The notes: generated by a model not told the origin, from the sequence alone. A DNA stretch of 32,000 bases from Promethearchaeia archaeon (GCA_046497275.1 JAWOFX010000084.1:1-32000), one strand, 5' to 3'. Positions 7,142-25,732 are shown, counted from the stretch's first letter. Translations and numbers: made by a program.

Positions 7142-8101
7142 TCATTTTTTGGGTCTAATCACAGAATAAAGGTCTCCCACAGTAGTATTCATTTCCGCAT
7201 AAACATTATGTGGATGGATTGATTCAAAACTCTCAATTTTAAAGGTTATTTTAAAATTATCTTGTAAATTTGGAAAATCTCTTCTTAAGAAATTCCGTGC
7301 CATTTCTCGTATAATATCTTCTGCAAAAAGTGGTTTGAGATGAGCACTTCTAACTAATTCCGCTTCCTCATATCTTTTTAACACCGATTGGATTTTTCCA
7401 GACATACTCTCTTCAATCACGTCAATTAATTCCAACACATCAATCTTATGACTGTTTAAATCATTTATTTGGAGGATGATAGTACCTTTGGATCTCTGAT
7501 TATGTGAAGCAAAAGGAAGGATATTAATTAATTTTTTTATATCTTCATCGGAAACATTAATATCTTTTCGTGTTCGGATAACCTCCTCAGCATATTCCTG
7601 TGACATTGATTTTGCGCAAGGGCAACAGCTAATTCCTACAGCTGAAGCACCGATAAAATAATTAGAGTCAATTTCCCCTTTCTGATTCTTTTTTGCTGTG
7701 GTGCGTGAACTTATATCATATGATTTTTGAATATTACCATGGGAATTTTCTCTAACCTGAACGATAATTTTACCTTCAAGATTAACTTCTACTTTTGAGG
7801 TGTAGGGATGGCGTTCTATTAACTTTTTTGCAATTCTATCTCCTACGAGTTCAATAGTAGGTGTTGGTTTGAAAATTACTTCATTAATAATTTCCTCGAT
7901 AGTTTCAGATGTCCGAGACATATGAATGCCCCTCTGTTGAGCGGGAAGAGAGATTAGGGCAGATATTTTTGGATAAAACGAATATCGTTTATTTTCTTGC
8001 ATAATCTCTACCTTCTTCTCAACATTAACAATTCCTACTTTATCGATAGGTAGATCAAAGGCAGATTCAGAATCTTGAAGGTCTTTTTTAAAATGATAAA
8101 T
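7142..8101 (-). CDS. mptA: GTP cyclohydrolase IV / FolE2 family (MptA); probable ATT start at 8101
   Basis: RGIHMSR, SCCPCA, ASHNQRS, LKRYEE, PLFAED, ESIHPHN. The family's N-terminal DLQ...IDKVGI motif lies upstream of the ORF-track ATG (8002) in the same open frame. Confidence 0.92.
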   Translation of the reverse strand: MYHFKKDLQDSESAFDLPIDKVGIVNVEKKVEIMQENKRYSFYPKISALISLPAQQRGIHMSRTSETIEEIINEVIFKPTPTIELVGDRIAKKLIERHPYTSKVEVNLEGKIIVQVRENSHGNIQKSYDISSRTTAKKNQKGEIDSNYFIGASAVGISCCPCAKSMSQEYAEEVIRTRKDINVSDEDIKKLINILPFASHNQRSKGTIILQINDLNSHKIDVLELIDVIEESMSGKIQSVLKRYEEAELVRSAHLKPLFAEDIIREMARNFLRRDFPNLQDNFKITFKIESFESIHPHNVYAEMNTTVGDLYSVIRPKK

Positions 8102-9376: not shown

Positions 9377-10037
9377 GAAACCATATATCATATTAAGTGC
9401 CGCAATGACTATTGATGGAAAGATAGCATCTAAAATTGGCGATCCCGAATTATCGGATGAAGAAGATTGGAAAGAAGTCCATAAACTTAGAACAAAGGTC
9501 GATGCCATTATGGTGGGAAAAGGAACAATATTGAAAGATAACCCAAAATTGCATATTAAATATTATGATCATTCGGGATATTATCGGATCGTACTAGATA
9601 GTAATTTATCTATTCCATTAAGTTCAAAGGTAATAAATTTCAAACCAGAGATATATCCAACCCTTATATGCACCACAGAACATGTTCCAAATGGAAAAAT
9701 TAGAGAATATGAATCTAAAAATAATACAGAGATTATCACATGTGGATCTAATGAACAAGTGGATATATCAAAACTTATGCCTATTCTTTTGGAAAAAGGG
9801 ATTGAATCAATCTTGTTAGAGGGAGGAGCAACATTGAACTGGAGCTTTATAGAGCAAGATCTAGTTGATGAGATCAGACTTACTATTGCTCCTTGGATAG
9901 TTGGTGGAGTAAAAGCCACTAGCTTAGTCGAGGGGATGGGATTCGAACAAATGAAACAAGCTCCCAGATTTGAACTTACTGATCTTAAGCATAGAAATAA
10001 TTATGTAATTTTACAATACAAGCGAACCGAGAAATGA
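9348..10037 (+). CDS. arfC: 2,5-diamino-6-(ribosylamino)-4(3H)-pyrimidinone 5'-phosphate reductase (archaeal ArfC/Rib7 type)
   Basis: PYIILSAAMTIDGKIA, VHKLR..VDAIMVGKGT...DNP, LLEGG..LN. Reductase domain only, with no fused deaminase. Confidence 0.92.
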   Translation: MVRKSLKENKKPYIILSAAMTIDGKIASKIGDPELSDEEDWKEVHKLRTKVDAIMVGKGTILKDNPKLHIKYYDHSGYYRIVLDSNLSIPLSSKVINFKPEIYPTLICTTEHVPNGKIREYESKNNTEIITCGSNEQVDISKLMPILLEKGIESILLEGGATLNWSFIEQDLVDEIRLTIAPWIVGGVKATSLVEGMGFEQMKQAPRFELTDLKHRNNYVILQYKRTEK

Positions 10038-11158
10038 AAAAATTGCCTGATATTGACAAATTGCTGGCTTTAAGTATTTCAGAGATACAAGAGCAAGTTA
10101 AAAAAATTAAGTATAACCTGTCATCGGAAGAAAGGAAGATTATTACTTTTTCAAAAAATTATACACTTTCGTTATCAAATTATTGTCAGAATGAATGTGG
10201 ATATTGTTATTATAATTACAAAATCCCAAAAGAAAAGGAAGAAGAAAACGTCGTTTTATTATCCAAAGAGGAAATTGAGAATAAAACTGAAAGAGCATTG
10301 AAATATGGATGTAAAGAAGCATTGATTATGTCAGGAGAAAATCCAGGGATATTTCCAGAAGTTAAAAATTTACTAAATGATAATGGATTTGATAATTATT
10401 TAAATTATGTACAAAATATCTGTCATTATTTATTAAAAGTGAATATGCTTCCTCATACTAACATTGGTTTCCTAGACCTCAAAGAGATGAAATCTCTAAA
10501 AAAGTGTTCCTCTAGTATGGGATTAATGTTAGAAAGTTCTAGCGAAGAATTGTCTAAGAAGGGAAGGGTTCATGAAAAATCCCCCGGGAAATTACCATCT
10601 AAAAGAATAAAGCATATAAAAACAGCCGGTAAATTAAAAATACCCTTTACTACGGGTTTATTATTAGGAATTGGAGAAACTAGAAGAGACCGGATAAATG
10701 ATTTATTATTGATAAAAAATATAAATGATAGATATGGTCATATCCAAGAAGTAATTATTCAGAACTTTGTTAGGAAACCATATATTCAATATCAGCCCTC
10801 TAAAACAATTTCTATTAAAGAAATGCTTAGAGTGGTTGGGCTTGCGAAATTGATTTTTAAAAATAAAATTGCTGTTCAAGTACCTCCTAATTTAATTGCC
10901 GGTTATGAAAAACAATTTTTAAATATGGGAATTGATGATTTTGGAGGAATCTCCCCTTTCACCATTGATTATATTAATCCAGAAAATAGATGGCCAGAAA
11001 TTAAAAGATTAGAGACTATCTGTAAAAAAAATGGGTTTATTTTAAAAGAGAGATTACCAATTTATGAAAAATATATAGATAATGAATCGTTCTGTCCAGA
11101 AAATATACAAAAAATTATAAGAAATATTAGAGGAAATGTCGTTAAAAGAAGTTTGTGA
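10034..11158 (+). CDS. cofG: FO synthase subunit CofG (radical SAM)
   Basis: ITFSKN, CQNECGYC, PHTN.G, SMGLMLES, KSPGK, PFTTGLLLGIG, HIQEVIIQNF, QVPPNL, DDFGGISP...NPE..WP. ATGA overlap with arfC. Confidence 0.93.
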   Translation: MKKLPDIDKLLALSISEIQEQVKKIKYNLSSEERKIITFSKNYTLSLSNYCQNECGYCYYNYKIPKEKEEENVVLLSKEEIENKTERALKYGCKEALIMSGENPGIFPEVKNLLNDNGFDNYLNYVQNICHYLLKVNMLPHTNIGFLDLKEMKSLKKCSSSMGLMLESSSEELSKKGRVHEKSPGKLPSKRIKHIKTAGKLKIPFTTGLLLGIGETRRDRINDLLLIKNINDRYGHIQEVIIQNFVRKPYIQYQPSKTISIKEMLRVVGLAKLIFKNKIAVQVPPNLIAGYEKQFLNMGIDDFGGISPFTIDYINPENRWPEIKRLETICKKNGFILKERLPIYEKYIDNESFCPENIQKIIRNIRGNVVKRSL

Positions 11159-12269
11159 TAATATCGAGCTAGAAATTAAGAATATTCTTGAAAAAAGTCT
11201 TAATAATATTGATATCAGTGAATCAGAAGCTTTAAAGTTATTAAAAACAACTGGTAAAGAATTCCTAGCCTTACAATCTGCTGCGAATCAAATTTGTTTT
11301 AACAAGAAACGAGATATTGTAACTTTTGTTGTTAATAGAAATATAAATTTCACTAATATCTGTTATCAAAAATGCAAATTCTGTTCTTTTAGTGTGCCAA
11401 AAAATCATCCTGATTCTTTTTTATTATTTATAGATGAAGTAGAAAAAAAAGTATTAGAAGCAAGCGATTACAATATAACGGAAGTATGTATGCAAGGAGG
11501 AATAAATCCCGATTTAACGTTCGAATATTATTTAGATATTTTAAGAAAAGTAAAAGAGATTGATTCTAAGATACATATTCATGCGTTTTCTCCTCAAGAA
11601 ATTTTCTATATATCGCAATTATCTCAAAATTCAGTTGAAGACACATTAAAGGAACTTAAAAAGGCAGGTTTAGATTCTATACCGGGTACTGCAGCAGAGA
11701 TGTTAGTAGATAAAATTAGAGAAATCGTTTGTCCTAATAAAATTTCTACACAAAAATGGACTGAAATTGTAAAAACAGCTCATACTTTAGGAATTCCCTC
11801 TACTTCTACTATGATGTATGGACATATTGAATCATTAGAGGATCGAATTGAGCATTTAAGGGTTTTAAGAGAGATTCAAAAAGACACTATGGGATTTACG
11901 GAATTTGTACCATTACCCTTTGTTAAAGATAATCCCATTTTATCTCTACTACCCGAAAAACCCCTCAAACCGAGTTATGGGATGGCAGATTTAAAATTAT
12001 TTTCCGTCGCACGACTCTTTTTTAATAATTATATTGATAATATTCAATGCTCTTGGGTAAAGTTAGGACCAAAATTTGCCCAAGTTTCACTTAATTATGG
12101 AGTAAATGATTTTTCGGGTACGCTTTTAGAAGAAAATATCTCAAAAAGTGCGGGTGCAGAATTTGGGGAATATCTTTCTCCGGAGGAGATTGTTTCGATT
12201 ATCAAAGAGGCTGGTAAAAGACCAGCTCAAAGAACAACCACATATGATGAAATCCTTAAATATTATTGA
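11136..12269 (+). CDS. cofH: FO synthase subunit CofH (radical SAM)
   Basis: VVNRNINFTNICYQKCKFC, MQGG, HIHAFSP, PGTAAE, TMMYGHIE, FVPLPF, NIQCSWVKLG, GTLLEENIS. Follows cofG directly. Confidence 0.93.
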   Translation: MSLKEVCDNIELEIKNILEKSLNNIDISESEALKLLKTTGKEFLALQSAANQICFNKKRDIVTFVVNRNINFTNICYQKCKFCSFSVPKNHPDSFLLFIDEVEKKVLEASDYNITEVCMQGGINPDLTFEYYLDILRKVKEIDSKIHIHAFSPQEIFYISQLSQNSVEDTLKELKKAGLDSIPGTAAEMLVDKIREIVCPNKISTQKWTEIVKTAHTLGIPSTSTMMYGHIESLEDRIEHLRVLREIQKDTMGFTEFVPLPFVKDNPILSLLPEKPLKPSYGMADLKLFSVARLFFNNYIDNIQCSWVKLGPKFAQVSLNYGVNDFSGTLLEENISKSAGAEFGEYLSPEEIVSIIKEAGKRPAQRTTTYDEILKYY

Positions 12270-12621: not shown

Positions 12622-14193
12622 TTATTCGTCTTGAATATATGGTTTTCCAAAATCAAGACACATTTCTGCCTTTTTTAATTCTCTTCCCAAATAATTAATA
12701 TGAGAGAGATTTTTAGTTAATTCTAACTCTATTATTTTTTTTGACATTACTTCTGCATTCTGGCCACTAAAGACCTTGAGCAATTTATCATTATTAGAAT
12801 AAAATAAGACAAAAATTCTTTTTTTATAGTGATCTACATAGATTTTAAAGTAACCAGCTTGATCAGCTTTATAATGAGCGCGTGATCCTTTAATATCAAC
12901 TATGTTTTGAGTGGAAAAATCTGGGATTTCTTGAGATGTTTTTCCTTTCGCTTTAAAGATTTGAATTCCAACATTGATAGGTGGAGTATTTTTATATTTA
13001 GAGAGATAATTTAGCATCAAAGATCTCTTTAATTCTTTCACACCTCCAAACATTTTGGTACTATGCTCCACGGTAAACACTATGCCCATATCCATCTCAA
13101 TTGCTATGCTTGCTAATAATCCATTGATCCCAACTGAATCTACATCCATTAATTCAACAACATTAGAAATTCCAAAAAACATTGGCAATTCAAGATGGCG
13201 ATATTCTTCCTTAGATGCCTTTTGTTTATATAAATAATACGTTTGTAAAGAATTAAGAATTCCCGGAGAGATGGGTGTTTCTAATAAAGGATCTGCTATC
13301 AATTTAGTAAATCCATTGTTTTGCAATTTCTCGGTTAATTCAAATAAGTTTTCCACCCGTTTTTCAGGATCTTTTGGAAAATACCCTTCATCAATATTAG
13401 TTGGGAGAATTACGATAGGAATATCTTTTGGGATATCTAGGAATTCTTTATAATATCCGATATCAAAACTCAAAATCATATCGATCCCTTCCTCTAAAGC
13501 CGAGAAAATCTCTTTTGTATCCATTGAGTCGATACTAATGAGTGTATCAAAATTTTTCCGTAATAATTTAATGATTTCTTTTACTCTAGAGGGTTTAGAG
13601 TTGTTTGCAAGACATCCAATATCGATAATATCCGCACCAGAATCAATATAATGCTCTGCTTTTCTGAGTATAGATCTGTCTGATTTTTTTGTGCAATTTA
13701 CAATTTCTGCGATAATAGGAGGAGGGAGGCTCGGACCTATTATTACATCACTAATTTGTTTATTTAAAAAGAATGTATTATGAGAGATGTTTTTCTTTGC
13801 TTTGTCGATTTTCTCCCGCACTATTTCATTATACTTTTTCTCTCCAGATAACTCAAAAAGTTTATCAGCAGCAATTTGATTTGATAATTCAATTTCTCCG
13901 AGATTATTTAAAATCATTGGAAGATCTGAAGCAAATTCTGGTCCTTTTCGAATTGGTAAATTATATTTATTCTCTATTTTGCTTAAATCCCATTGGACAA
14001 ATCCGGGGAGAAGTATTAAATCATATTTGGTTAAATCTAAGGAGTTTAAGGCATCTTCAGCCATTTTTGGTGTAATAAAAGCGGAAATAGAAACAGGGAT
14101 TTTATTTACTTCAATTTTATGACCTTTGATATTTTCTGATATTCCCCTAAGAATTGAATAACTTTGCTTCCCAGTTAATATTAAGATTCTAAT
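12622..14193 (-). CDS. Dihydropteroate-synthase-like pterin-binding protein of methanopterin pathways, with C-terminal DUF4346-like domain; probable ATT start at 14193
   Basis: GADIIDIG, ISIDS, IADPLL, GISNVVELMDVDSVG.N and C-terminal D..GYF.I. The N-terminal RILILTG...SISAFITP segment is open in frame upstream of ATG 14064. Confidence 0.88.
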   Translation of the reverse strand: MRILILTGKQSYSILRGISENIKGHKIEVNKIPVSISAFITPKMAEDALNSLDLTKYDLILLPGFVQWDLSKIENKYNLPIRKGPEFASDLPMILNNLGEIELSNQIAADKLFELSGEKKYNEIVREKIDKAKKNISHNTFFLNKQISDVIIGPSLPPPIIAEIVNCTKKSDRSILRKAEHYIDSGADIIDIGCLANNSKPSRVKEIIKLLRKNFDTLISIDSMDTKEIFSALEEGIDMILSFDIGYYKEFLDIPKDIPIVILPTNIDEGYFPKDPEKRVENLFELTEKLQNNGFTKLIADPLLETPISPGILNSLQTYYLYKQKASKEEYRHLELPMFFGISNVVELMDVDSVGINGLLASIAIEMDMGIVFTVEHSTKMFGGVKELKRSLMLNYLSKYKNTPPINVGIQIFKAKGKTSQEIPDFSTQNIVDIKGSRAHYKADQAGYFKIYVDHYKKRIFVLFYSNNDKLLKVFSGQNAEVMSKKIIELELTKNLSHINYLGRELKKAEMCLDFGKPYIQDE

Positions 14194-15296
14194 TAGAGAT
14201 CACGATCTATTTTTCCTTTATCGAATGGAATATATATATTATCTAATATTGATCCCGATGCATCTCTTATTCTTAGATTATCAATAATATCTTTATATTT
14301 CCCTCCTAATAATCCATCGGCAATAAAAGCGGCACCTTGAGCTGCTCTTTTTGCTATCTGACTATAACTATTCATTAATCGAACAGGCGCTACTTCTTTA
14401 AGGGTTTGAATGACCTTGTTTCTTAGATAATTTATTTCAGCACCTCTTCCCGCTAACAAAATCTCTGTAATTTTATCTTTTTTTGAAAAAGAGGAAGAAA
14501 TTCCGAATACTGCTTTTTTAACACTTGATAAATAGGCATTAAAAGCTTTTTTTGTTTGATCATCCTTTTCAGCTAAAATTGTAATTTCTTTAAGACTCAG
14601 GTCGCTATACCCACTTATATAGGAAACCCCACCTTTATAGATATTTTTTTTCTTTATATTTTTGATCAAATACGCTAGTTCTCCATCCAGACTCCCACAA
14701 GCTCTAAAACCCATTATATTTGAACCCCCTATTCCATCGATAATTTGACCATTTTCTATTGCTAACACTGCTGTAAATCCATATCCAATTTCTACCATAA
14801 TAAAATTACTTTCTGGAGGAGGTATATCATATTGTTCTGTCTGGTCTTTTATTCCCGTGACTGCGGTACATAATTTATCTGCTGTACCCATATCAATTTT
14901 ATTGATTTTTCTATAGTCTGGAACAGTAAGTAAATGTTTCACACCTGGAACGATTACACCAGGGACACCCAAATCCTTAAGTAATCGTAAAATCTCTCCC
15001 AGTCCTAATAATTTATTTTTTTCCTCACTCTTAAACTTCAATAAGGTTAGGAATAAATCTTTCTCGGTTAAGTCTTCCACTTTCTTTAGGGGCAAACCAA
15101 ATCCGGAAGGTGCAACCATCAAATCGATTTTTTTTCGATCATCTAATGATTGGATAATATCAACGACTTTGGAGGGTTGTCTCATTATTTCTCTTGTAGA
15201 GATTGAAATATCCAATATAATATCATCTCCATCGAGACTAAGGAAATCCCAGCTTTTTGATCCCGGATCTATTCCTAAAACCGTTTTTTTATTCAT
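14193..15296 (-). CDS. DUF1464 family ASKHA-fold protein (COG2441, butyrate-kinase-like)
   Basis: GIDPGSKSWD, APSGFGLP, PGVKHL.TVP..RK.N.IDMGTADK, GSLDGELAY, AAQGAAFIADGL.GG. Confidence 0.85.
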   Translation of the reverse strand: MNKKTVLGIDPGSKSWDFLSLDGDDIILDISISTREIMRQPSKVVDIIQSLDDRKKIDLMVAPSGFGLPLKKVEDLTEKDLFLTLLKFKSEEKNKLLGLGEILRLLKDLGVPGVIVPGVKHLLTVPDYRKINKIDMGTADKLCTAVTGIKDQTEQYDIPPPESNFIMVEIGYGFTAVLAIENGQIIDGIGGSNIMGFRACGSLDGELAYLIKNIKKKNIYKGGVSYISGYSDLSLKEITILAEKDDQTKKAFNAYLSSVKKAVFGISSSFSKKDKITEILLAGRGAEINYLRNKVIQTLKEVAPVRLMNSYSQIAKRAAQGAAFIADGLLGGKYKDIIDNLRIRDASGSILDNIYIPFDKGKIDRDL

Positions 15297-15390
15297 TTTA
15301 AGCAAATTAAATGAATTTTTCTTGACTATTTACAATAATAATCAATTCATTATATTCTTATAATAAATTTTGAAAAAAATTAAAAGCCTT

Positions 15391-16389
15391 TTATTCAGAT
15401 TTATTGGTTCTCCCAATCGCTACAATCATTCCTTTATAATCGAAGATTTCATTATTTTTAAATCCACTTGCTTTTAAATCTTGTAGGATTTCCTCTTTTG
15501 AAAAAATTGAATTAGAAATTGAATCTTTATATATTTTTAGAATCTCATCAGCAGCTATATCCTTTGTTAAAGGGAAAGGTGCTTTCGCAACAATAATTAC
15601 CATACCATCATTTGGTCTTAATATTCTATACAATTCAGCAAGAATTTCAAGACGTTCCATTCCATAAAAATGAATTGTCTTTTTATAATTCGGAATAGCA
15701 ATCATTTCAATAAAATTATCTGGTTCCCTGATTTTTTTATTATAAACTTTAGAAATACGTACATCTTCGAGATCTGTTTTGGAATAATCTTCATAATTTT
15801 CTTTACTTGATAAAATGAATACCTCATCCGCAAGGTTTTTATACCAATTGACTAATCGGAGATGAATATATTCTGAAAACCATACGCCCATGAGGTTATC
15901 TAAATGGGTTTTTCCACTTTTTTCGATGATCAAATTAGTTAATCCCTCATCAAATTTTACGAAATCGGGAATAACCGTTGAATCCATGAAAAATTGCAGA
16001 AGTGTTTTAATAACATTCCGAGCAAGTGGGGTTGGTTCCACTGTCTCGATTCGTCCTTTATGATTAAGATTGAATTTAATTAAACCTCGAGACTCGAGAT
16101 TAGAAAGATTATTATAAAAACTTGAGGTGGAGAGATTTGCACCATTTTTCTCTTTCTTTTTAACATAAGTTAGTAAACGATTTTCATATTCCTTCAATCC
16201 TTTAGTTGATAAATTTTCCAACTCTGTTTTTCTTGTCTGAATTAATTCATTTACAATTACATAGAGTGTGTAGCGTACAATAGGTTTTCCATATTCAAGT
16301 AGAGAATTTAACGTAATAATTTCTACTAAAGAAAGGTTTATTAGATTCCCAATTCGCAACTTTTTTATTAAGGAAGTATCTTCAGAAAT
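15391..16389 (-). CDS. Winged-HTH (PadR/MarR-like) regulator fused to a degenerate SAM-methyltransferase-like domain; probable ATT start at 16389
   Basis: LSTSSFYNNLSNLESRGLI is a wHTH recognition helix. C-terminal ILAELYRILRPNDG...FSKEEI...L..SGF is typical of class I methyltransferase tails. Confidence 0.6.
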   Translation of the reverse strand: MSEDTSLIKKLRIGNLINLSLVEIITLNSLLEYGKPIVRYTLYVIVNELIQTRKTELENLSTKGLKEYENRLLTYVKKKEKNGANLSTSSFYNNLSNLESRGLIKFNLNHKGRIETVEPTPLARNVIKTLLQFFMDSTVIPDFVKFDEGLTNLIIEKSGKTHLDNLMGVWFSEYIHLRLVNWYKNLADEVFILSSKENYEDYSKTDLEDVRISKVYNKKIREPDNFIEMIAIPNYKKTIHFYGMERLEILAELYRILRPNDGMVIIVAKAPFPLTKDIAADEILKIYKDSISNSIFSKEEILQDLKASGFKNNEIFDYKGMIVAIGRTNKSE

Positions 16390-18820: not shown

Positions 18821-18942
18821 TGTAAAAGAAAAATACAGTTAAAATTAATTATATTTGATATCAATTTTATTTTAATATAATTGTAGTTTCTTTAAAATGG
18901 AAAAATAAAATTAAACATTTACTAAATATTGAGGTCTAAAAA

Positions 18943-21441
18943 ATGAGTAAAGCCACAGAATCATCTGATTCTGGAAAAGGTATGAAATATGAGATTGCTA
19001 AGCCTCATGATCTTTTACCTCGTTCATCATGGTTGAGAAAGTATTATTTTAAAGGAGTAGATCGTGAATGGAACAATGAATATAGCCCTTTTACAGCCGG
19101 AACGGAATGGGATATAATCTTTGAGGAACAAAATTATTACATTGTGCCAGAATTGGTATTGTACATCGGAACTAAGGGGAAAGGTGTATTCGCTACATCA
19201 TTTCGCTCCTCCGCGACTAAAGTCGATTTACCAGAAGATTTTTGGGATCTTCCCATACCTGAACGAAAAATAAAATTTCTGGAAAAAGTTATGACAGAGT
19301 ACATCCCCCAGGAGATAATTTCTGAAAATGATCTAATCGCTGGAGGGAGATTTAATACACAATTAAGCAATTGCCTCTCTGAGAAAGAAACAAAACCATT
19401 TTGGAAAGAAACAATGAGAAATCGAAATGAATACTTTAAATTCCATGGTGCTGGATTTGGTAATACTGGAGCCACCAGTGGACATGTTATCCCGGACTAT
19501 GAGACAGTTATAAATAAAGGATTTAAATTTCTCTATGAAAAAGCAAAGGAAAGCTATGAAAGCCTTTCAGAAAATGAGAAAAAAGGCGCAAAAGGTGACG
19601 AGTTAAAAGCGATGATCACAGCTACTCAAATTCCAAAAAAGCTTGCGAAAAAATATGCAGAGGAGTGCAGACGACTCAAAGAAAACGCTTCTCAAGAACG
19701 TGCGAAAGAACTGGAGCAAATGGCAAAAAACTTAGAAAAAGTTCCCTGGGAACCAGCAAAAACCTTTTGGCAGGGAGTTCAATCGATTTGGTTGACTCAC
19801 ATGCTTATCATGGCAGAAGAATCATATCCTGGTCCTGGTACATCGTTTGGGAGAACTGATCAGCATCTCTGGTATTTATATAAAAAAGATGTGTTGGATG
19901 AGAAAAATATCACGAGAGATTTTGCAAAAGAAATTCTAGGGAGTTTTTGGTTTCATTGTAATACGGCATATGATGCTATGATAAAAGTGGGAAAGCAAGG
20001 AATCACATCTGGATATGGACAATTGATGACACTCTCGGGATGTGGTCCAAATGGCGAAGATTTAACGAATGAACTTACATATGCAATTATTGAGGTAATA
20101 GATGAATGGTCGCCAATTTTAGAACCGAAACCAAATATTCGGATCCATCGAAATACCCCAGACAAACTACTAAATATAATTATAGATTGCGTATCTCGTT
20201 CTCAAGGTGCTCCTTTTTTAATAAATTTTGATGAAAGAAGTATCGCTGGTATGATCACAGAAGGAATACCGAAAGAAGAAGCGTGGGATTATGCGTGCGT
20301 TGGATGTTTGGAAAACACGATGCAAGGCAATGATCGTTCTGGGACTGTGAATTGCAATCCAAACTTAGCAAAAAGCATTGAATTAACCTTATGGGATGGA
20401 AAAATTATGCCTGGAAATTCAAATGAACCTTGGTCAAAAGAAGGGGATCAATTTGGCCCAAAAACAGGCAATCCAGAAGAGTTTGAAACATGGGAAGAGT
20501 TTTGGGAGGCATGGAAAACCCAAATAGAATATATTATTAGTTATTTAGTTGAAGTTAATAATTTAACCGAGCAAACTAGGGGCAAATACTTACCGACTCC
20601 CTATTTATCGACTATTGTTAGGGGATGTATTGAAAAAGGCATTGATATTAGAAATGGGGGTCCAGAACTAAGATTTGTCACAGTCGAAGGAGTCGCATTC
20701 GCCACCACCGTCGACTCCTTATTAGCAATCAAGCATTTTGTATATGATGAGAAAAAATATACAATATCAGAAATCAAAGAAGCATTAGTGAATAATTTTG
20801 AAGGGAAATATGCGGTGATGCAAACGATGCTAAAAAATCGAGCCCCGAAATATGGAAATGATATTGATGAGGCAGATGAGATGGCAAGAAAGGTAATGAA
20901 AATCTGGTCAGATGAAACATGGAAATATAAAACACCTACGAACTTCCAATATCGCCCTGGGATGCTCTCATGGAACTATTGGGCTGGTGAAGATGCTGCG
21001 CTCACACCAGCAACACCAGATGGCAGAAAGGAAGGTGTTTTTTTATCAAATGCAATTAATCCTACCGATGGTGTCGACACAGAAGGACCAACAGCAGTTA
21101 CAAATTCAGTTGGGACGGCTTTAGGAGGCAAAACAGAGAATGGAGAGTATATCAACTATTTACCGAATGGTTCTAGCCACACTATAACCTTTAATCCAAG
21201 TATTCTTAGAGATCCTGAGCATAGAGAAAAATTCAAAGCATATCTTCGTGGTTATATCGAGAATGGAGGTACATGCCTACAAATCAACATACTAGATGCA
21301 GAAGTTTTAAAAGATGCACAACAGCACCCTGAAAATTATGAGAATCTGCTTGTAAGAGTAACGGGATATAATGCATATTTTACAGCAATAGGAAAAGAAT
21401 TACAAGATGAAATAATTGCTCGAGAAAGCCATGGAATGTAA
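18943..21441 (+). CDS. Glycyl radical enzyme, PFL2/eliminase-like, substrate unknown
   Basis: Gly-radical motif LLVRVTGYNAY near the C-terminus; Cys loop YACVGCLEN; also SFGRTDQ, EPKPNIR, PKYGND. GAGGT RBS. Confidence 0.93.
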   Translation: MSKATESSDSGKGMKYEIAKPHDLLPRSSWLRKYYFKGVDREWNNEYSPFTAGTEWDIIFEEQNYYIVPELVLYIGTKGKGVFATSFRSSATKVDLPEDFWDLPIPERKIKFLEKVMTEYIPQEIISENDLIAGGRFNTQLSNCLSEKETKPFWKETMRNRNEYFKFHGAGFGNTGATSGHVIPDYETVINKGFKFLYEKAKESYESLSENEKKGAKGDELKAMITATQIPKKLAKKYAEECRRLKENASQERAKELEQMAKNLEKVPWEPAKTFWQGVQSIWLTHMLIMAEESYPGPGTSFGRTDQHLWYLYKKDVLDEKNITRDFAKEILGSFWFHCNTAYDAMIKVGKQGITSGYGQLMTLSGCGPNGEDLTNELTYAIIEVIDEWSPILEPKPNIRIHRNTPDKLLNIIIDCVSRSQGAPFLINFDERSIAGMITEGIPKEEAWDYACVGCLENTMQGNDRSGTVNCNPNLAKSIELTLWDGKIMPGNSNEPWSKEGDQFGPKTGNPEEFETWEEFWEAWKTQIEYIISYLVEVNNLTEQTRGKYLPTPYLSTIVRGCIEKGIDIRNGGPELRFVTVEGVAFATTVDSLLAIKHFVYDEKKYTISEIKEALVNNFEGKYAVMQTMLKNRAPKYGNDIDEADEMARKVMKIWSDETWKYKTPTNFQYRPGMLSWNYWAGEDAALTPATPDGRKEGVFLSNAINPTDGVDTEGPTAVTNSVGTALGGKTENGEYINYLPNGSSHTITFNPSILRDPEHREKFKAYLRGYIENGGTCLQINILDAEVLKDAQQHPENYENLLVRVTGYNAYFTAIGKELQDEIIARESHGM

Positions 21442-21462
21442 TATATAAAAAAATCACTCAAG

Positions 21463-22476
21463 ATGGTATATTTGTCAGAGTCAAAATCAAAAAAAGGATT
21501 GGTTTTCGAGATTCAAAAAATGTCCACTGAGGATGGACCTGGAATTAGAACAACCGTATTCATGAAACATTGTCCTTTAAAATGCGTATGGTGTCATAAT
21601 CCGGAATCAATTCCTAAAAAACCTTTATTAGAATGGTTATCGCATAAATGCATAGGATGTAAAACTTGTGTTGAAACTTGTAAGCAAGGCGCTCTGAAAT
21701 TTACTGAGGAAGGTCTCTTGATTAACCGAGAAAAATGTATAAGTTGTGGAGAATGTGTAGAAGAATGCCCGAGTACAGCGCTTCATATGTTTGGTAAAGA
21801 ATGGGATTTGGAGGATCTCTTTCATGAAGTAGATAAAGATAGAGTGTATTATGCAAAGTCAGGAGGAGGAGTCACTATTTCTGGTGGGGAACCTACACTT
21901 CAATCCGAATTTGTATATGAATTTCTTAGAAAATGTAAAGACAACGGAATAAATACTGCTTTAGATACATGTGGATATGCCAGGAAGGAAATATACGAGA
22001 AATTATTGCCCTACGTAGATTTGATCCTTTTGGATATTAAAGAAATAGATTCAGAGAAACATAAAGAATTTACAGGTGTACCAAATGAAAAAATTCTTGA
22101 AAATGCGAAATGGCTCGCTAAATACGCCCAACAACATGATAAAAAGTTATGGATTAGAACACCACTTATTCCAAATTATACAGCAACAGAAGAAAACATA
22201 GAAGGAATAGGAAAATTCATTGTTAATGAATTGGATAATATTCCAGAACGATGGGATCTTCTTACGTTCAATAATTTATGCGCTGATAAATATGAAAGGT
22301 TGGATCTTGAATGGGATCTAGCAGGAGTTCCGCTTATGAAGGAAAAGGAGATATTACATCTTTATGAGATTGCGAAAAAAACTGGAGTAAAAAACGTTCA
22401 ATGGTCAGGTCTTACAAAAAGTGAAAAAATAGACGAATCTTCGAAGCTTGATAATATAAAATTACCATCTTGTTAA
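21463..22476 (+). CDS. Glycyl-radical enzyme activating protein (radical SAM with 2x[4Fe-4S] ferredoxin insert)
   Basis: DGPGIRTTVFMKHCPLKCVWCHNPE, CIGCKTCVETC, CISCGECVEECP, GGVTISGGEP, ALDTCG. Confidence 0.95.
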   Translation: MVYLSESKSKKGLVFEIQKMSTEDGPGIRTTVFMKHCPLKCVWCHNPESIPKKPLLEWLSHKCIGCKTCVETCKQGALKFTEEGLLINREKCISCGECVEECPSTALHMFGKEWDLEDLFHEVDKDRVYYAKSGGGVTISGGEPTLQSEFVYEFLRKCKDNGINTALDTCGYARKEIYEKLLPYVDLILLDIKEIDSEKHKEFTGVPNEKILENAKWLAKYAQQHDKKLWIRTPLIPNYTATEENIEGIGKFIVNELDNIPERWDLLTFNNLCADKYERLDLEWDLAGVPLMKEKEILHLYEIAKKTGVKNVQWSGLTKSEKIDESSKLDNIKLPSC

Positions 22477-22515
22477 AAATATTATAAAAAATTAATTAAA
22501 AAAGTTGATATTATA

Positions 22516-23403
22516 ATGGGAAAAGAAAACTCTTTAAAATGGTCTTCTCAATTAACGGATGATGCTGTAGAGTTTACAACGCCGGAAATCATGTTGAAAC
22601 TAGTTTCAACTATTGATGAGAGAGGCTGGCCCCATATAACTATGATTTCTAGTAATATTGCGACAAATAATAATGAAATCGTTTGGGGAGCGTTTACAGA
22701 AGGGACTAGCAAGAAAAATGTAATAAATAATCCGAAACAAGGTATTTTCTATATGACAGCAGATATGCCCTTTAAATTCTTGCAAGTAAAAGCGAATTTT
22801 GATCATAAAACAAAAGAGGGAGAAGAAATAGAATATTTCAATACTCTAAAAATAATGCGCTATAACACTTATATTCGTGTTCATACAGGTTATTATAATG
22901 AAGTAGTAGCAGCAAGATCAGTTAGAGATCTCTCTCTATTGGGTATAGTAGGAGGTATTGTAAAAGATTTAGTTGGAAAAGGTGGTGCTAAAACAGATTT
23001 AAGTGAAGAAAGATTAGGAGTCAGGGGATATGATTTGTTTACCGCTCCGATTGCTATTCGAGCGATAAGTTATCTTGATCCTGAAGATGGATATCCAATC
23101 ATTGTTCCTTGCATTCCGCTACAAGCAGCAGATCATAATAGGCTTGTGTTTCCACTCTCTTCAACAAAAGATGATCTTTTAAAGATACCTAAAGGAGCAA
23201 AAGTCGCAGTATTTTGTATGAATTTTGATTATGCAAATCAAGTTGTAAAAGGTACATATACGGGAATCGAAAGAAGTAGATTGATTAAATTTGGCAGAAT
23301 AGAAATAGAAGAGATTTATAATAGCTGCCCTCCTGTAATTGGGGTTATTTATCCGGAAGAACGTAAATATTCAAGACCAAAGGTAACAGATTTTAATCTT
23401 TAA
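22516..23403 (+). CDS. Tandem (two-domain) pyridoxamine 5'-phosphate oxidase-like split-barrel protein
   Basis: Two repeats: KLVSTIDERGWPHITMISS...SKKNV.NNPK and RAISYLDPEDGYPIIVP...IPKGAKVAV. Confidence 0.75.
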   Translation: MGKENSLKWSSQLTDDAVEFTTPEIMLKLVSTIDERGWPHITMISSNIATNNNEIVWGAFTEGTSKKNVINNPKQGIFYMTADMPFKFLQVKANFDHKTKEGEEIEYFNTLKIMRYNTYIRVHTGYYNEVVAARSVRDLSLLGIVGGIVKDLVGKGGAKTDLSEERLGVRGYDLFTAPIAIRAISYLDPEDGYPIIVPCIPLQAADHNRLVFPLSSTKDDLLKIPKGAKVAVFCMNFDYANQVVKGTYTGIERSRLIKFGRIEIEEIYNSCPPVIGVIYPEERKYSRPKVTDFNL

Positions 23404-23534
23404 AAGGTTTTTTTTATTATTTATTTTTTTTAAAATTTTCAATTAATAACAAATTAGAACTAATTCTTTTATTTGATTTTGAATATTTAAAATTTAAAGC
23501 TAAAAACACATTTTACAATCCTAAGAGAATTAAA

Positions 23535-24293
23535 TTGAGTCCAAGAATTATTAATTTTAAAGAGAAATTTGGGATAGAAAAGGATCATTTATATGAAATT
23601 TTGGCAACTACAATTTCAATTAATAAGGATACAGAAGAAAAATTTCCTAATACATCTTCTATGGGAATAAGATTAAAGGAGAATAATTTGTTTGTAATGA
23701 ATCCTTATCCAAGTACAAAAACGTTCCAAAATCTTGAAGTTAATGGTATAGTAGTGATTAATTTTGTAGATAATATTTATTTGTATGCTTTAGCCGCATT
23801 AAAAGAACCGGAATCCAGAATTGATTTAAAAATCTTTCCAAAAAGATATTATGAATACTTAGATAAATCTGTGATTTCAGAGCTACAAAATTATTTACCA
23901 AATCAGATAGAAAATGTAATATCAAATATTCCCTATATAAAACAATCCTGGGGAATAATTATAGGTATGGTTGAGGGAAAAAAGAAAAAGAAAAAGCAAA
24001 ACGGATTAGGAAAGATCAATCTCACTGAATTTAAGATCAAAGCAATTTATAGTAATAATCTTAGAGCCAGTTATAATCTATATAACAGAGCCGAAAATTT
24101 AGCTTTAGAGATGATTATTTTAGCGACTCGATTGAAGGTTGCGTATATTAAAGAAGACAGGATTTTAATCTCATCAATAGAAGAAAAGATAAGCCAATTT
24201 GAGAATGATATTAGGAGATTCAGTAAAAATAGCCGAGTACTCAAAACTATTAATCTCGTACAAAAATACCGTAAAACGTTAGAAATACCTTAA
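23535..24293 (+). CDS. DUF447 family protein (split-barrel N-domain + helical C-domain)
   Basis: EILATT...N.SSMG...YPSTKTFQNL...NFVD and C-terminal YNRA..LALE..ILATR. Confidence 0.82.
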   Translation: MSPRIINFKEKFGIEKDHLYEILATTISINKDTEEKFPNTSSMGIRLKENNLFVMNPYPSTKTFQNLEVNGIVVINFVDNIYLYALAALKEPESRIDLKIFPKRYYEYLDKSVISELQNYLPNQIENVISNIPYIKQSWGIIIGMVEGKKKKKKQNGLGKINLTEFKIKAIYSNNLRASYNLYNRAENLALEMIILATRLKVAYIKEDRILISSIEEKISQFENDIRRFSKNSRVLKTINLVQKYRKTLEIP

Positions 24294-24314
24294 AAAAGGA
24301 TTTGAAAATGATAT

Positions 24315-24707
24315 TTATTTTCTTTCAACAATTTTCTCTATAAACATTAGAGGATATTCCAAATCCTCTACCCAATCAATTTTAGCTGTTATTTCTACTT
24401 CTTCGAATTCTAATATTAATTGAGCTCTTATGATTTTTCCAGTTATTTCATCATAATCGAATTCATCACTCTTTTTGCCGTTTATGAGATGTCGTGCTAA
24501 ATTGATTTTTATTTGTTTTACGTATGGTTGACATGAAATGCTCTTCTCAATTCCTTTTTCGATTGAGTTTATTACATCTTCATTTGAAGAAATCGGAATC
24601 CCACATAAAATATGATAAAGCGCCCCAAGTTTTATTCCCGTTTCAAAACATGCGCGTTCTCTAATATTTAAATCAGATGGAAAATAAATTTTACTTTTAT
24701 CAGTCAT
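24315..24707 (-). CDS. mptD: Archaeal dihydroneopterin aldolase
   Basis: RERACFETGIKLGALYH...GIP, IEKSISCQPYV, Y.EI.G, L.YPLMFI. Adjacent to mptG. Confidence 0.9.
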   Translation of the reverse strand: MTDKSKIYFPSDLNIRERACFETGIKLGALYHILCGIPISSNEDVINSIEKGIEKSISCQPYVKQIKINLARHLINGKKSDEFDYDEITGKIIRAQLILEFEEVEITAKIDWVEDLEYPLMFIEKIVERK

Positions 24708-24712
24708 AATAA

Positions 24713-25732
24713 CTAATCAAGAATTTCGTATCTTGCTCCTAGATTATTAGGTTTACATATATAAAAATGTCCCAAGTGATTAAGTTTCGTCTTAAGAGCC
24801 TCAAATAATTCTTCCGCTTCTGAATCAGACTCAGTGATTCCAACCACACTTGGTCCGAAGGAACTCATTCCGTAGGCTTTAACCCCAAATTCTCCCATAA
24901 AGTTGAGAAGATCCTTCACGATTTTATCTTGTAAACTTATTTCAATTTTCTTAAATCCTATAGATTGAATCCTTTTAAGACCTTCTCCAAAAACTGTTAA
25001 ATTGTTTTTCAAAATACCAGGAATTATTTTCATTAAAATTTGATGAGATACTTCATTTACTTCTTCTTTCGGAATCGGAGTATGTTTTTGAAAGATTGAA
25101 ACTTCTTCATCGCCGTACGCTCCTTTGCTAACATTAGGAATAACTAAAACAAATCGCCAATGTTCTGGAATATCATAACGGAATATAGTTAAAGCAGGAT
25201 CTGCTGAACTTGAAGCGGAGGATGGCAAAAAGGTTTCTTTTTCTTTTCCTAGACCAAAATCGTGCCCTCCATCTAATATAAAGCCTCCTGTTTTAAATCC
25301 ACGCCATCCAATTCCAGATGTACCTCCCCTTCCAACAATATTAGTGAGAGATTTATGAGAAATATCGAGATCTTTTAATTTTGCGATTGCTGATGCTATT
25401 GCTAATGATAATTGCGTCTTACTTCCCAAGCCAACGTGAGAAGGGTAATATTGTTTTAGATAAAAATGAAAATTCTTATTGCTAATATCAAGTGTTTTAA
25501 AAACTTTTGAGGCTTTCTCATTTATCACTTCAATGGATTCCCTATAGTAGCGATGAGCTTCAATCTTAAATTCTTTAGCCGAATTGGTGGCTTCAAATAC
25601 AACATTTGGTTTATCAAGCATGAGACCGATACCGCCATCCACCCTTCCCGTATATCCATTTTCGTCAATTAGAGATAAATGAATACGACTTGGAGTAATA
25701 ATCCTGATCTTCATTTTTAAAAAGCTCATCAA
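24713..25732 (-). CDS. mptG: Beta-ribofuranosylaminobenzene 5'-phosphate (RFAP) synthase, GHMP family
   Basis: TPSRIHLSLID, GRVDGGIG, PSHVGLGSKTQL, GRGGTSGIG, GGFILDGGH, GMSSFGP. Confidence 0.93.
   Translation of the reverse strand: MMSFLKMKIRIITPSRIHLSLIDENGYTGRVDGGIGLMLDKPNVVFEATNSAKEFKIEAHRYYRESIEVINEKASKVFKTLDISNKNFHFYLKQYYPSHVGLGSKTQLSLAIASAIAKLKDLDISHKSLTNIVGRGGTSGIGWRGFKTGGFILDGGHDFGLGKEKETFLPSSASSSADPALTIFRYDIPEHWRFVLVIPNVSKGAYGDEEVSIFQKHTPIPKEEVNEVSHQILMKIIPGILKNNLTVFGEGLKRIQSIGFKKIEISLQDKIVKDLLNFMGEFGVKAYGMSSFGPSVVGITESDSEAEELFEALKTKLNHLGHFYICKPNNLGARYEILD

Follow-up and report, generated by a model that had tools for sequence, protein, structure and literature searches.

A glycyl radical enzyme cassette from an Asgard archaeon with a predicted split-barrel subunit

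Glycyl radical enzymes (GREs) in which the catalytic chain carries additional small subunits are few, and the three listed in a 2026 review—HPAD, BSS, and MASS—all have subunits that contain iron (PMC13450708). The same review gives RVxG[FWY] as the GRE fingerprint, identifies the CXE motif as common to GRE eliminases and isomerases, and describes how, in glycerol dehydratase, Glu435 deprotonates the C1 hydroxyl of the substrate and His164 protonates the leaving hydroxyl; it records no archaeal GRE of the pyruvate formate-lyase (PFL)-like type with a characterized function (PMC13450708). Here we describe a three-gene cassette at positions 18943-23403 of a 32,000-nucleotide stretch of DNA from a Promethearchaeia archaeon (GCA_046497275.1 JAWOFX010000084.1:1-32000; the whole stretch is referred to below as the window). 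The cassette encodes a GRE catalytic subunit with the CXE motif, its radical-SAM activating enzyme, and a protein of two tandem split barrels, the predicted second (beta) subunit of the enzyme.

We consider it likeliest, at a probability of roughly 0.55, that these genes specify a heteromeric eliminase-type GRE system in which the split-barrel protein is docked on an N-terminal module specific to one clade of large subunits. In such a system, the activase would install a radical on Gly808 of the large subunit, from which a thiyl radical would form on Cys455 and abstract a hydrogen atom from the substrate. The product of the third gene, in which two split barrels are fused as a pseudo-dimer, would serve as a subunit and not as a free downstream enzyme. 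Docked on an N-terminal module found only in the cassette clade, it would contact the loop that follows the cap helix and the segment beyond strand β8, at the mouth of the GRE substrate channel, where it may gate or complete the active site, or hold a flavin-like ligand beside it.

The operon and its large subunit

The genes lie on the + strand of a Loki-type Asgard genome (assembly 3.85 Mb, 98.9% complete), a placement supported by the names of its close homologs, in a window with a G+C content of about 30%. The catalytic (alpha) subunit, P0001 (832 aa), is encoded at 18943-21441, and its ATG stands 7 nt after a Shine-Dalgarno-like GAGGT read from the sequence at 18931-18935 (+). The activating enzyme, P0002 (337 aa), follows at 21463-22476 after a gap of 21 nt, and the split-barrel partner, P0003 (295 aa), at 22516-23403 after a further 39 nt. 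These open reading frames (ORFs) match exactly the co-oriented arrangement given in a preliminary description of the window, which was made from the sequence alone. Two runs of eight T directly after the stop codon of the third gene (23408-23431, +) are likely an archaeal terminator, judging from the sequence and from the ends of RNA contigs; no T-runs occur in either internal gap.

The cassette is also present in RNA libraries. Eleven runs recorded as RNA contain the stretch whole or in part, and seven of these, all salt-lake metatranscriptomes from two studies, contain 81-97% of its sampled words. Contigs from four of the seven were aligned onto the window. A single 4321-nt contig corresponds to 19040-23360, spanning three genes and both gaps; two more extend from the 3' end of the first gene to that of the third; and contigs from all four aligned runs, representing both studies, terminate at 23358-23390. 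Contig depth is 20-75 over most of the operon, 0.2-7 in the upstream spacer, and 0-7 just downstream, falling from 20.8-45.9 in the final operon bin to 0-5.6 in the next. Contigs do not prove a single transcript, and DNA may be present in RNA libraries; the operon is nonetheless likely transcribed, with contig boundaries that coincide with it in two studies. The suggestion of one operon, originally drawn from the short gaps, is borne out by the contig that covers all three genes and by the oligo-T stretch after the third. The best DNA matches to 18943-23403 among public runs come from freshwater-sediment metagenomes, a possible origin of this DNA, and the RNA matches, mostly at ≥99% identity, come from salt lakes; near-identical organisms seem to inhabit both kinds of habitat.

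P0001 is a member of the GRE superfamily by Pfam search, with 432.9 bits to the PFL-like domain (PF02901) and 82.6 bits to Gly_radical (PF01228). Translation confirms both catalytic loops as they had been read at the outset: the glycyl radical site is R805-V-T-G808-Y (21355-21369, +; within PF01228), and the Cys loop is G454-C455-L456-E457 (20302-20313, +), a Cys-X-Glu motif and not the Cys-Cys of PFL. C455, the putative thiyl-radical cysteine, aligns with Cys433 of glycerol dehydratase and Cys434 of HypD. In a HMMER alignment to glycerol dehydratase (1r8w), residues H164, C433, and E435 correspond to H181, on barrel strand β1 (19483-19485, +), C455, and E457, and all three are invariant across 27 cassette GREs. 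The cassette GRE thus carries the CXE-class motif, as C455-L-E457, and eliminase-type chemistry is proposed because the full catalytic set of glycerol dehydratase (Cys455, Glu457, His181) is kept.

The residues that would recognize a substrate differ. In glycerol dehydratase, H281/S282, D447, and Y640 are presumably the substrate-binding residues, and the same alignment, which is less certain in loops, pairs them with P298/G299, V469, and L675. Substrate-contact sites common to GREs lie on strands β1, β2, β3, β6, and β8 (PMC8473560, on IslA), and in the cassette clade they are occupied by H181, Y-P-G-P-G at 295-299, T355, T468/V469, and W677, all invariant and clade-specific. Because the recognizing residues of known enzymes are replaced by clade-invariant ones, the substrate is probably not glycerol, propanediol, hydroxyproline, choline, or a C2/C3 sulfonate. 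Judging from these motifs, the chemistry is probably eliminase-like with a new substrate: a hydroxylated small metabolite would most likely undergo radical 1,2-elimination (C-O cleavage of the dehydration type) or an isomerization closely related to it. R671 was considered as an anion-binding counterpart of IslA Arg678 and rejected, since the IslA position corresponds by alignment to G673; R671 instead aligns with a conserved HypD Arg, six residues before the β8 site. The stand-alone AlphaFold2 model of the GRE has a mean predicted local distance difference test score (pLDDT) of 78.4, with poorly modeled Cys, Gly, and active-site loops, and was left out of pocket analysis.

The best match to P0001 in the PDB is glycerol dehydratase 1r8w (5.7e-101, 342 bits, residues 179-832). 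As the preliminary description had anticipated, the protein lies outside every characterized cluster: it scores far under the NCBIfam equivalog cut-offs for HypD (387 versus 1100), HpsG (374 versus 1000), and CutC (329 versus 1050), and the models for these three, for HpfG, and for the indoleacetate and HPA decarboxylases together give 210-387 bits against cut-offs of 1000-1150. It also falls short of TIGR01774, the PFL2/glycerol dehydratase subfamily (422.2 bits versus 678.2). Identity as PFL itself was rejected, given G454-C455 in place of Cys-Cys and 85 bits to TIGR01255 against a cut-off of 994.

One published assignment may bear on this clade. Asgard GREs have been labeled alkyl-/benzylsuccinate synthases in a study of Hermodarchaeota, a label that rests on 29-33% identity to AssA/BssA and on the single Cys (PMC8163825); proteins recorded as from Hermodarchaeota are 72-74% identical to P0001. 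We regard such a function for P0001 as most improbable. The BSS and MASS structures give 184-215 bits against 342 for glycerol dehydratase, the eliminase CXE glutamate and β1 histidine are both present, and no fumarate-addition pathway genes lie nearby in the window. The gaps of 21 and 39 nt leave no room for genes of Fe-S small subunits; no small Cys-rich ORF fits within the operon, and membership among the X-succinate synthases (Ass/Bss/Mas) was rejected.

The second gene encodes the cognate radical-SAM activase, at 334 bits against the TIGR02494 cut-off of 174. Its cysteine motifs comprise C37x3C41x2C44 and two CxxCxxCxxxC motifs, at residues 63-73 and 92-102, in agreement with its earlier reading as an activase with a ferredoxin insert, here one of the two-cluster kind.

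Co-inheritance and predicted docking of the split-barrel partner

Hundreds of genomes share the three-gene arrangement, which is thus far from a chance juxtaposition. When one genome per species was scanned, at least 593 matching stretches were recovered, of which the best 80 were kept as loci; among the matches listed, most belong to Thermodesulfobacteriota (Syntrophales, Desulfomonilia, Desulfobacterales), whose carriers are sulfate-reducing and syntrophic, or to Spirochaetota/Leptospirales. The carriers include MAGs (metagenome-assembled genomes) assigned to Desulfosudis oleivorans and Desulfocicer vacuolatum (L088, L078, L087). Where at least 3.7 kb of DNA upstream of a bacterial partner gene was available (70 loci), a GRE 52-58% identical to P0001 lay within 5.5 kb in 68 and within 7 kb in the other two, and the activase stood between GRE and partner in 65. 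In Asgard MAGs, close homologs of both the partner (64-95% identity) and the GRE (70-95%) occur, and the trio recurs with unrelated flanks; even partner relatives at 26-34% identity adjoin a GRE and an activase in three of three loci examined. About one-third of the sampled Asgard genomes carry the clade: of 201, 67 have both GRE and partner, 4 the GRE only, 9 a partner-like gene only (three of them weak), and 121 neither, counts that are descriptive insofar as related genomes are not independent. The co-occurrence check proposed for the tandem gene thus finds it conserved beside the GRE homologs, in 70 of 70 bacterial loci and in these 67 Asgard genomes. In two loci of genus g4 (L111, L113) the order is GRE-partner, overlapping or with a tiny gap, and the activase lies 1-2 kb further on.

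A maximum-likelihood tree recovers 30 cassette GREs as one clade (support 100/100, stem 2.35), separate from five paralogs in the same genome and from a second, downstream bacterial GRE family. Within it, Asgard clade A, which includes the operon in the window (GRE identity 67-77%), is sister to the bacterial group, and Asgard clade B (GRE identity 44-48%, partner identity 20-29%) is basal. Some clade-B genomes encode a one-barrel partner, about 160 aa long, which can be aligned with either half of P0003; for example, a complete 3.58-Mb genome encodes a lone 161-aa split barrel (L100, 4424-4909, −) that keeps the motif K-Y-N-A-Y-F, and another basal Asgard cassette has a shorter partner (L102, 6378-7169, +). 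This pattern fits an origin of the tandem partner as a fused dimer.

The second bacterial GRE (~790 aa, 30% identical to P0001, in a different clade) lies downstream of the partner in L019, L024, L035, L036, L040, L045, and L049. The genome that holds the window has five further PFL-like GREs: L012 (C172:82014-83966), L013 (C65), L014 (C100), L015 (C172:8759-10741), and L016 (C117). None reaches any NCBIfam equivalog cut-off, two pass TIGR01774, and two, of about 995 aa, have N-terminal extensions of about 200 aa; within the short stretches around these paralogs, an activase adjoins the GRE only in L014 and L016.

P0003 is modeled by AlphaFold2 as two split β-barrels (pLDDT 94.3), and its N- and C-terminal halves are 29% identical (E 6e-5), in keeping with the duplicated PNPOx-like domain first proposed for it, even though the Pfam match to PNPOx_N (PF01243, residues 29-116) is sub-threshold at 22.5 bits against a gathering cut-off of 28.1. 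The best fold match is the FMN (flavin mononucleotide)-binding protein 3in6 (VIA Z 14.2; Foldseek probability 1.0), and the closest folds overall are single-domain FMN-, F420-, and heme-binding split barrels with 9-16% identity in the best rows. The fold-search rows mostly concern the N-terminal barrel (model residues 2-141), and the C-terminal barrel is identified from the model and the internal repeat. A PDB sequence search with P0003 returned only spurious matches to light-harvesting proteins. No Cys occurs among the invariant or near-invariant columns of a 60-sequence partner alignment, and the motifs R-Y-N-x-Y and V-Y-N-S-M-P-P are specific to the family. The near-invariant Lys66, in a G-x-S-K motif, occupies what we take to be the usual flavin-phosphate-binding place of the split-barrel fold; the modeled fold and this residue are compatible with flavin binding.

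Positions 1-154 of the PFL-like HMM (hidden Markov model) find no match in the first 176 residues of P0001, while in the five paralogs the match begins at positions 3-20. BLAST detected a module of about 160 residues (residues 14-176; 18982-19470, +) in every one of the 30 cassette GREs tested, at 35-71% identity, and in none of seven GREs from outside the clade. On the HMM, BLAST, and modeling evidence together, this module is the predicted docking surface of the partner. A complex of GRE residues 14-715, with the glycyl radical domain removed, and partner residues 5-295 was predicted with ipSAE values of 0.86, 0.86, and 0.83, all three controls scoring 0.00; the runs agree on at least 95% of contacts, and the partner has a pLDDT of 87-88. 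In calibration, 58 of 80 solved complexes reached the mark applied, as did 2 of 110 mismatched pairs; these rates are approximate for the present case, in which our own alignments were used. The result is unlikely to reproduce a structure seen in training, because no GRE/split-barrel complex has been solved. P0003 is therefore predicted by the model to bind P0001 as a new, non-Fe-S subunit.

The modeled interface on the GRE side lies mostly in the clade-specific module (residues 30-49, 55, 68-90, and 122-127) and otherwise comprises 345-356 and 679-686; on the partner side it comprises 59-63, 112-123, 168-171, 237-242, 269-278, and the C-terminal tail. The partner face includes the signature motifs R115-Y-N-x-Y119 and N-x-C-P-P273, with R115, Y116, Y119, G63, and P273 near-invariant, and its positions are more conserved than the remainder of the partner (0.53 versus 0.43, permutation p 0.003). 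In the stand-alone GRE model, residues 325-341 form a helix between β2 and β3, the position of the cap helix, and the loops at 345-357 and 679-681 are modeled with low confidence. Of the interface segments, 345-356 comes after the cap-position helix and 679-686 after the β8 strand. In GREs generally, a conserved substrate channel is defined by the cap helix, helix α8', and the loop after β1, and in BSS this channel is plugged by the beta subunit (PMC13450708). From the interface segments and this channel definition, we infer that the partner would sit at the channel mouth.

A different role for the partner is possible. The products of GRE dehydratases are normally handled by a dedicated redox enzyme, and P0003 might be such an enzyme, a free-standing FMN-dependent oxidoreductase acting on the carbonyl product of the GRE without F420. 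The fold matches 3in6 and the FMN-binding protein of D. vulgaris, and both the weak PNPOx_N match over residues 29-116 and Lys66 would suit this role, which we consider a real if clearly lesser possibility. It sits less comfortably with the strong complex model, which engages the conserved face of the partner; nearly all conserved polar residues lie in or beside that modeled interface and not in a pocket of their own, the cassette has no nucleotide-binding domain or other source of electrons, and the Pfam score is under its cut-off. The complex model accordingly favors a bound subunit over the proposal, in the preliminary description, that the partner reduces or oxidizes the GRE product.

It is also conceivable that the partner handles the radical, either as an electron carrier to the activase or as a protector or quencher of the glycyl radical, as proposed for HPAD gamma. 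Small flavoproteins such as flavodoxin reduce GRE activases. Where the GRE gene stands apart, those for the activase and the partner remain adjacent to each other. Roles of the known small subunits in radical installation and persistence have been discussed (PMC13450708). We judge this unlikely: the five other GREs of the same genome manage without such a partner, the partner is tied to one GRE clade and its N-terminal module and not to activases generally, and the model, computed for the GRE-partner pair, places it on the GRE.

Several observations weigh against the heteromeric reading. Binding is predicted by a model only, for a GRE truncated at residue 715, and less space might be available to the partner on the complete protein; the channel-mouth placement was derived from sequence position together with a model of medium quality (pLDDT 78, low in the active-site loops), not from coordinates. 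The GRE side of the interface is not more conserved than the remaining GRE. Some Asgard genomes have the GRE gene 4-50 kb away from those for the activase and partner, or on a different contig, and the partner evolves faster than the GRE, with about 35% versus 54% identity between archaea and bacteria. The search found no longer, fused form joining GRE and partner, which is weak evidence. Finally, a catalytic redox role for the partner is possible, since split barrels are characteristic of flavin, deazaflavin, and heme enzymes.

Neighboring genes, cofactor, and substrate clues

In bacteria, a co-oriented FadR/FCD-type GntR regulator starts the cassette in 27 loci, frequently overlapping the GRE start; its NCBIfam matches include NanR, FadR, PdhR, GlcC, and LldR and do not discriminate the ligand. 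In Asgard archaea, a co-oriented type-I sulfatase with a CxPxR motif is present in 8 of 21 clade-A loci, downstream of the partner in L004, L104, L106, L116, and L118 and upstream of the GRE in L107, L114, and L123; L003 and L006 retain only a remnant. These sulfatases belong to two non-orthologous subfamilies, 27% identical to each other, of which one occupies the downstream and the other the upstream position. Nine clade-A loci also encode an NMO/FabK-like FMN protein, in the order GRE-activase-partner-sulfatase-NMO or sulfatase-NMO-GRE-activase-partner, and in one genome activase, partner, sulfatase, and NMO genes lie together 50 kb from the GRE. None of the 80 best bacterial loci has a cassette-linked sulfatase, and the genome that holds the window has only unlinked copies, with sulfatases 58-59% identical and an NMO paralog 55% identical. 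These associations suggest, weakly, that the GRE substrate derives from a sulfate ester in some Asgard archaea.

A bolder proposal is that the partner forms part of the active site, where it would hold a flavin at the channel mouth or else bind a bulky substrate there by a phosphorylated or nucleotide-like end. The reaction would then be new for PFL-like GREs—a net reductive dehydroxylation, as in ribonucleotide reductase, or radical chemistry on a tethered, presented substrate, to give two examples—and in Asgard archaea it could belong to sulfate-ester breakdown with the linked sulfatase and FabK-like flavoenzyme. We hold this proposal to be doubtful as a whole.

The surroundings of the operon in the window initially suggested another cofactor. 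Genes cofG and cofH lie at 10034-12269, about 7 kb upstream, and some of the fold matches to P0003 bind F420 (3f7e, 5jv4, 5jab), so that the partner might use F420 made by these neighbors. The cofGH/methanopterin neighborhood is, however, synteny confined to a single Asgard group; the cassettes of bacteria and of the remaining Asgard archaea adjoin different genes, and in the five bacterial host genomes searched cofH scores fall under the cut-off in every case. F420 was rejected as a general cofactor of the partner family, and its use by P0003 in particular appears very unlikely. The preliminary interpretation therefore stands as regards the operon, the enzyme class, and the unusual partner, and is abandoned as regards F420-dependent processing of the product.

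The operon is flanked by tetrahydromethanopterin-type biosynthesis genes (window 7142-8002, 12622-16359, and 23535-25732), among them an MptA-like GTP cyclohydrolase, a pterin-binding protein with DUF4346, DUF1464 and DUF447 proteins, an archaeal dihydroneopterin aldolase, and a GHMP-kinase-like protein. The window contains no genes for a bacterial microcompartment (BMC) shell, an aldehyde or alcohol dehydrogenase, or a small Fe-S subunit, an absence already remarked on in the first reading of the locus, and tRNA and Rfam scans of the window found nothing. Elsewhere, one Asgard lineage has a conserved ORF of 46-48 aa some 200-300 nt before the GRE (L003 4004-4150, L004 3466-3606, L006 168-314); it was considered as an extra subunit and dismissed, being absent from the window and from all other loci. 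An acyl-CoA synthetase, a PlsC-like acyltransferase, NrpR, and MCP were set aside as recurrent bacterial neighbors because they reflect single-lineage synteny, and one further recurrent neighbor "family" proved to be an antisense ORF artefact over the partner gene.

Comparison with described systems

New here are the modeled alpha-beta complex, the docking module, the single-barrel form of the partner, the RNA evidence, and the association of the cassette with sulfatase and FabK-like genes in Asgard archaea. Among the papers searched, none described a GRE/activase/split-barrel cassette, and nothing relevant on further GRE subunits or on PFL in Prometheoarchaeum was found. The clade currently bears conflicting names in databases and the literature: formate C-acetyltransferase, Hyp dehydratase, and possibly "Ass/Bss." To our knowledge, each newly assigned GRE clade has so far revealed a new metabolic route, and GREs carry out difficult anaerobic reactions. 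If the predicted complex is correct, the superfamily would gain a new architecture, in which a subunit of flavoprotein fold docks on an N-terminal module dedicated to it; should the partner prove necessary, that could account for failed expression or assay of the large subunit alone.

The closest described system is the glycerol dehydratase of Clostridium butyricum, DhaB1/DhaB2 (1r8w/1r9d). P0001 shares with DhaB1 the radical cysteine, the CXE glutamate, and the β1 histidine, and P0002 has the same kind of ferredoxin insert as DhaB2. P0001 differs from DhaB1 in its unrelated first 176 residues, in the third, partner protein, and in having P298/G299, V469, and L675 at the positions of H281/S282, D447, and Y640. 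HypD, CutC, IslA/IseG, HpsG/HpfG, propanediol dehydratase, and the isomerases PflD/YbiW/HplG likewise share the CXE motif and single Cys, the ten-stranded barrel, and a ferredoxin-insert activase, and they give the next PDB bit scores after glycerol dehydratase. The cassette enzyme is nevertheless distinct from them: equivalog scores are 329-387 bits against cut-offs of 1000-1100, its specificity positions differ (β2 Y-P-G-P-G, β3 T355, β8 W677), and none of those enzymes has a split-barrel subunit. We know of no structurally studied archaeal PFL-like GRE other than PFL2 of Archaeoglobus fulgidus (2f3o). That enzyme, whose function is debated, resembles P0001 in its single Cys, but it belongs to a different clade (291 bits), and its match begins at P0001 residue 178, leaving the N-terminal module uncovered.

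For the partner, comparisons can be drawn both with GRE subunits and with split-barrel proteins. The beta and gamma subunits of BSS, HPAD gamma, and the beta, gamma, and delta subunits of MASS each place an extra, non-catalytic chain on a catalytic subunit, as is predicted for P0003. That the partner had not been described in characterized GRE loci, as first supposed, agrees with the review's listing of Fe-containing small subunits only (PMC13450708). Whereas the known small subunits are HiPIP- or rubredoxin-like iron proteins, P0003 is a tandem split barrel of 295 aa that lacks conserved Cys ligands, and the model docks it on an N-terminal module peculiar to the clade. A gene of split-barrel type has also been reported from a different GRE operon, the limonenylsuccinate synthase operon of a Syntrophobacteraceae MAG, which includes an expressed PNPOx-like protein, LssP, with no role assigned (PMC12583861). 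Among split-barrel proteins at large, Swol_0183 (3in6), HupZ, the D. vulgaris FMN-binding protein, and the mycobacterial F420 enzymes share the fold of P0003 (Z 8.8-14.2), and P0003 differs from them in its fused tandem form, its family-specific motifs, and an identity of only 9-16% in the best rows. The GluTR-binding protein (4n7r) provides an example of the same fold acting as a non-catalytic, enzyme-binding partner.

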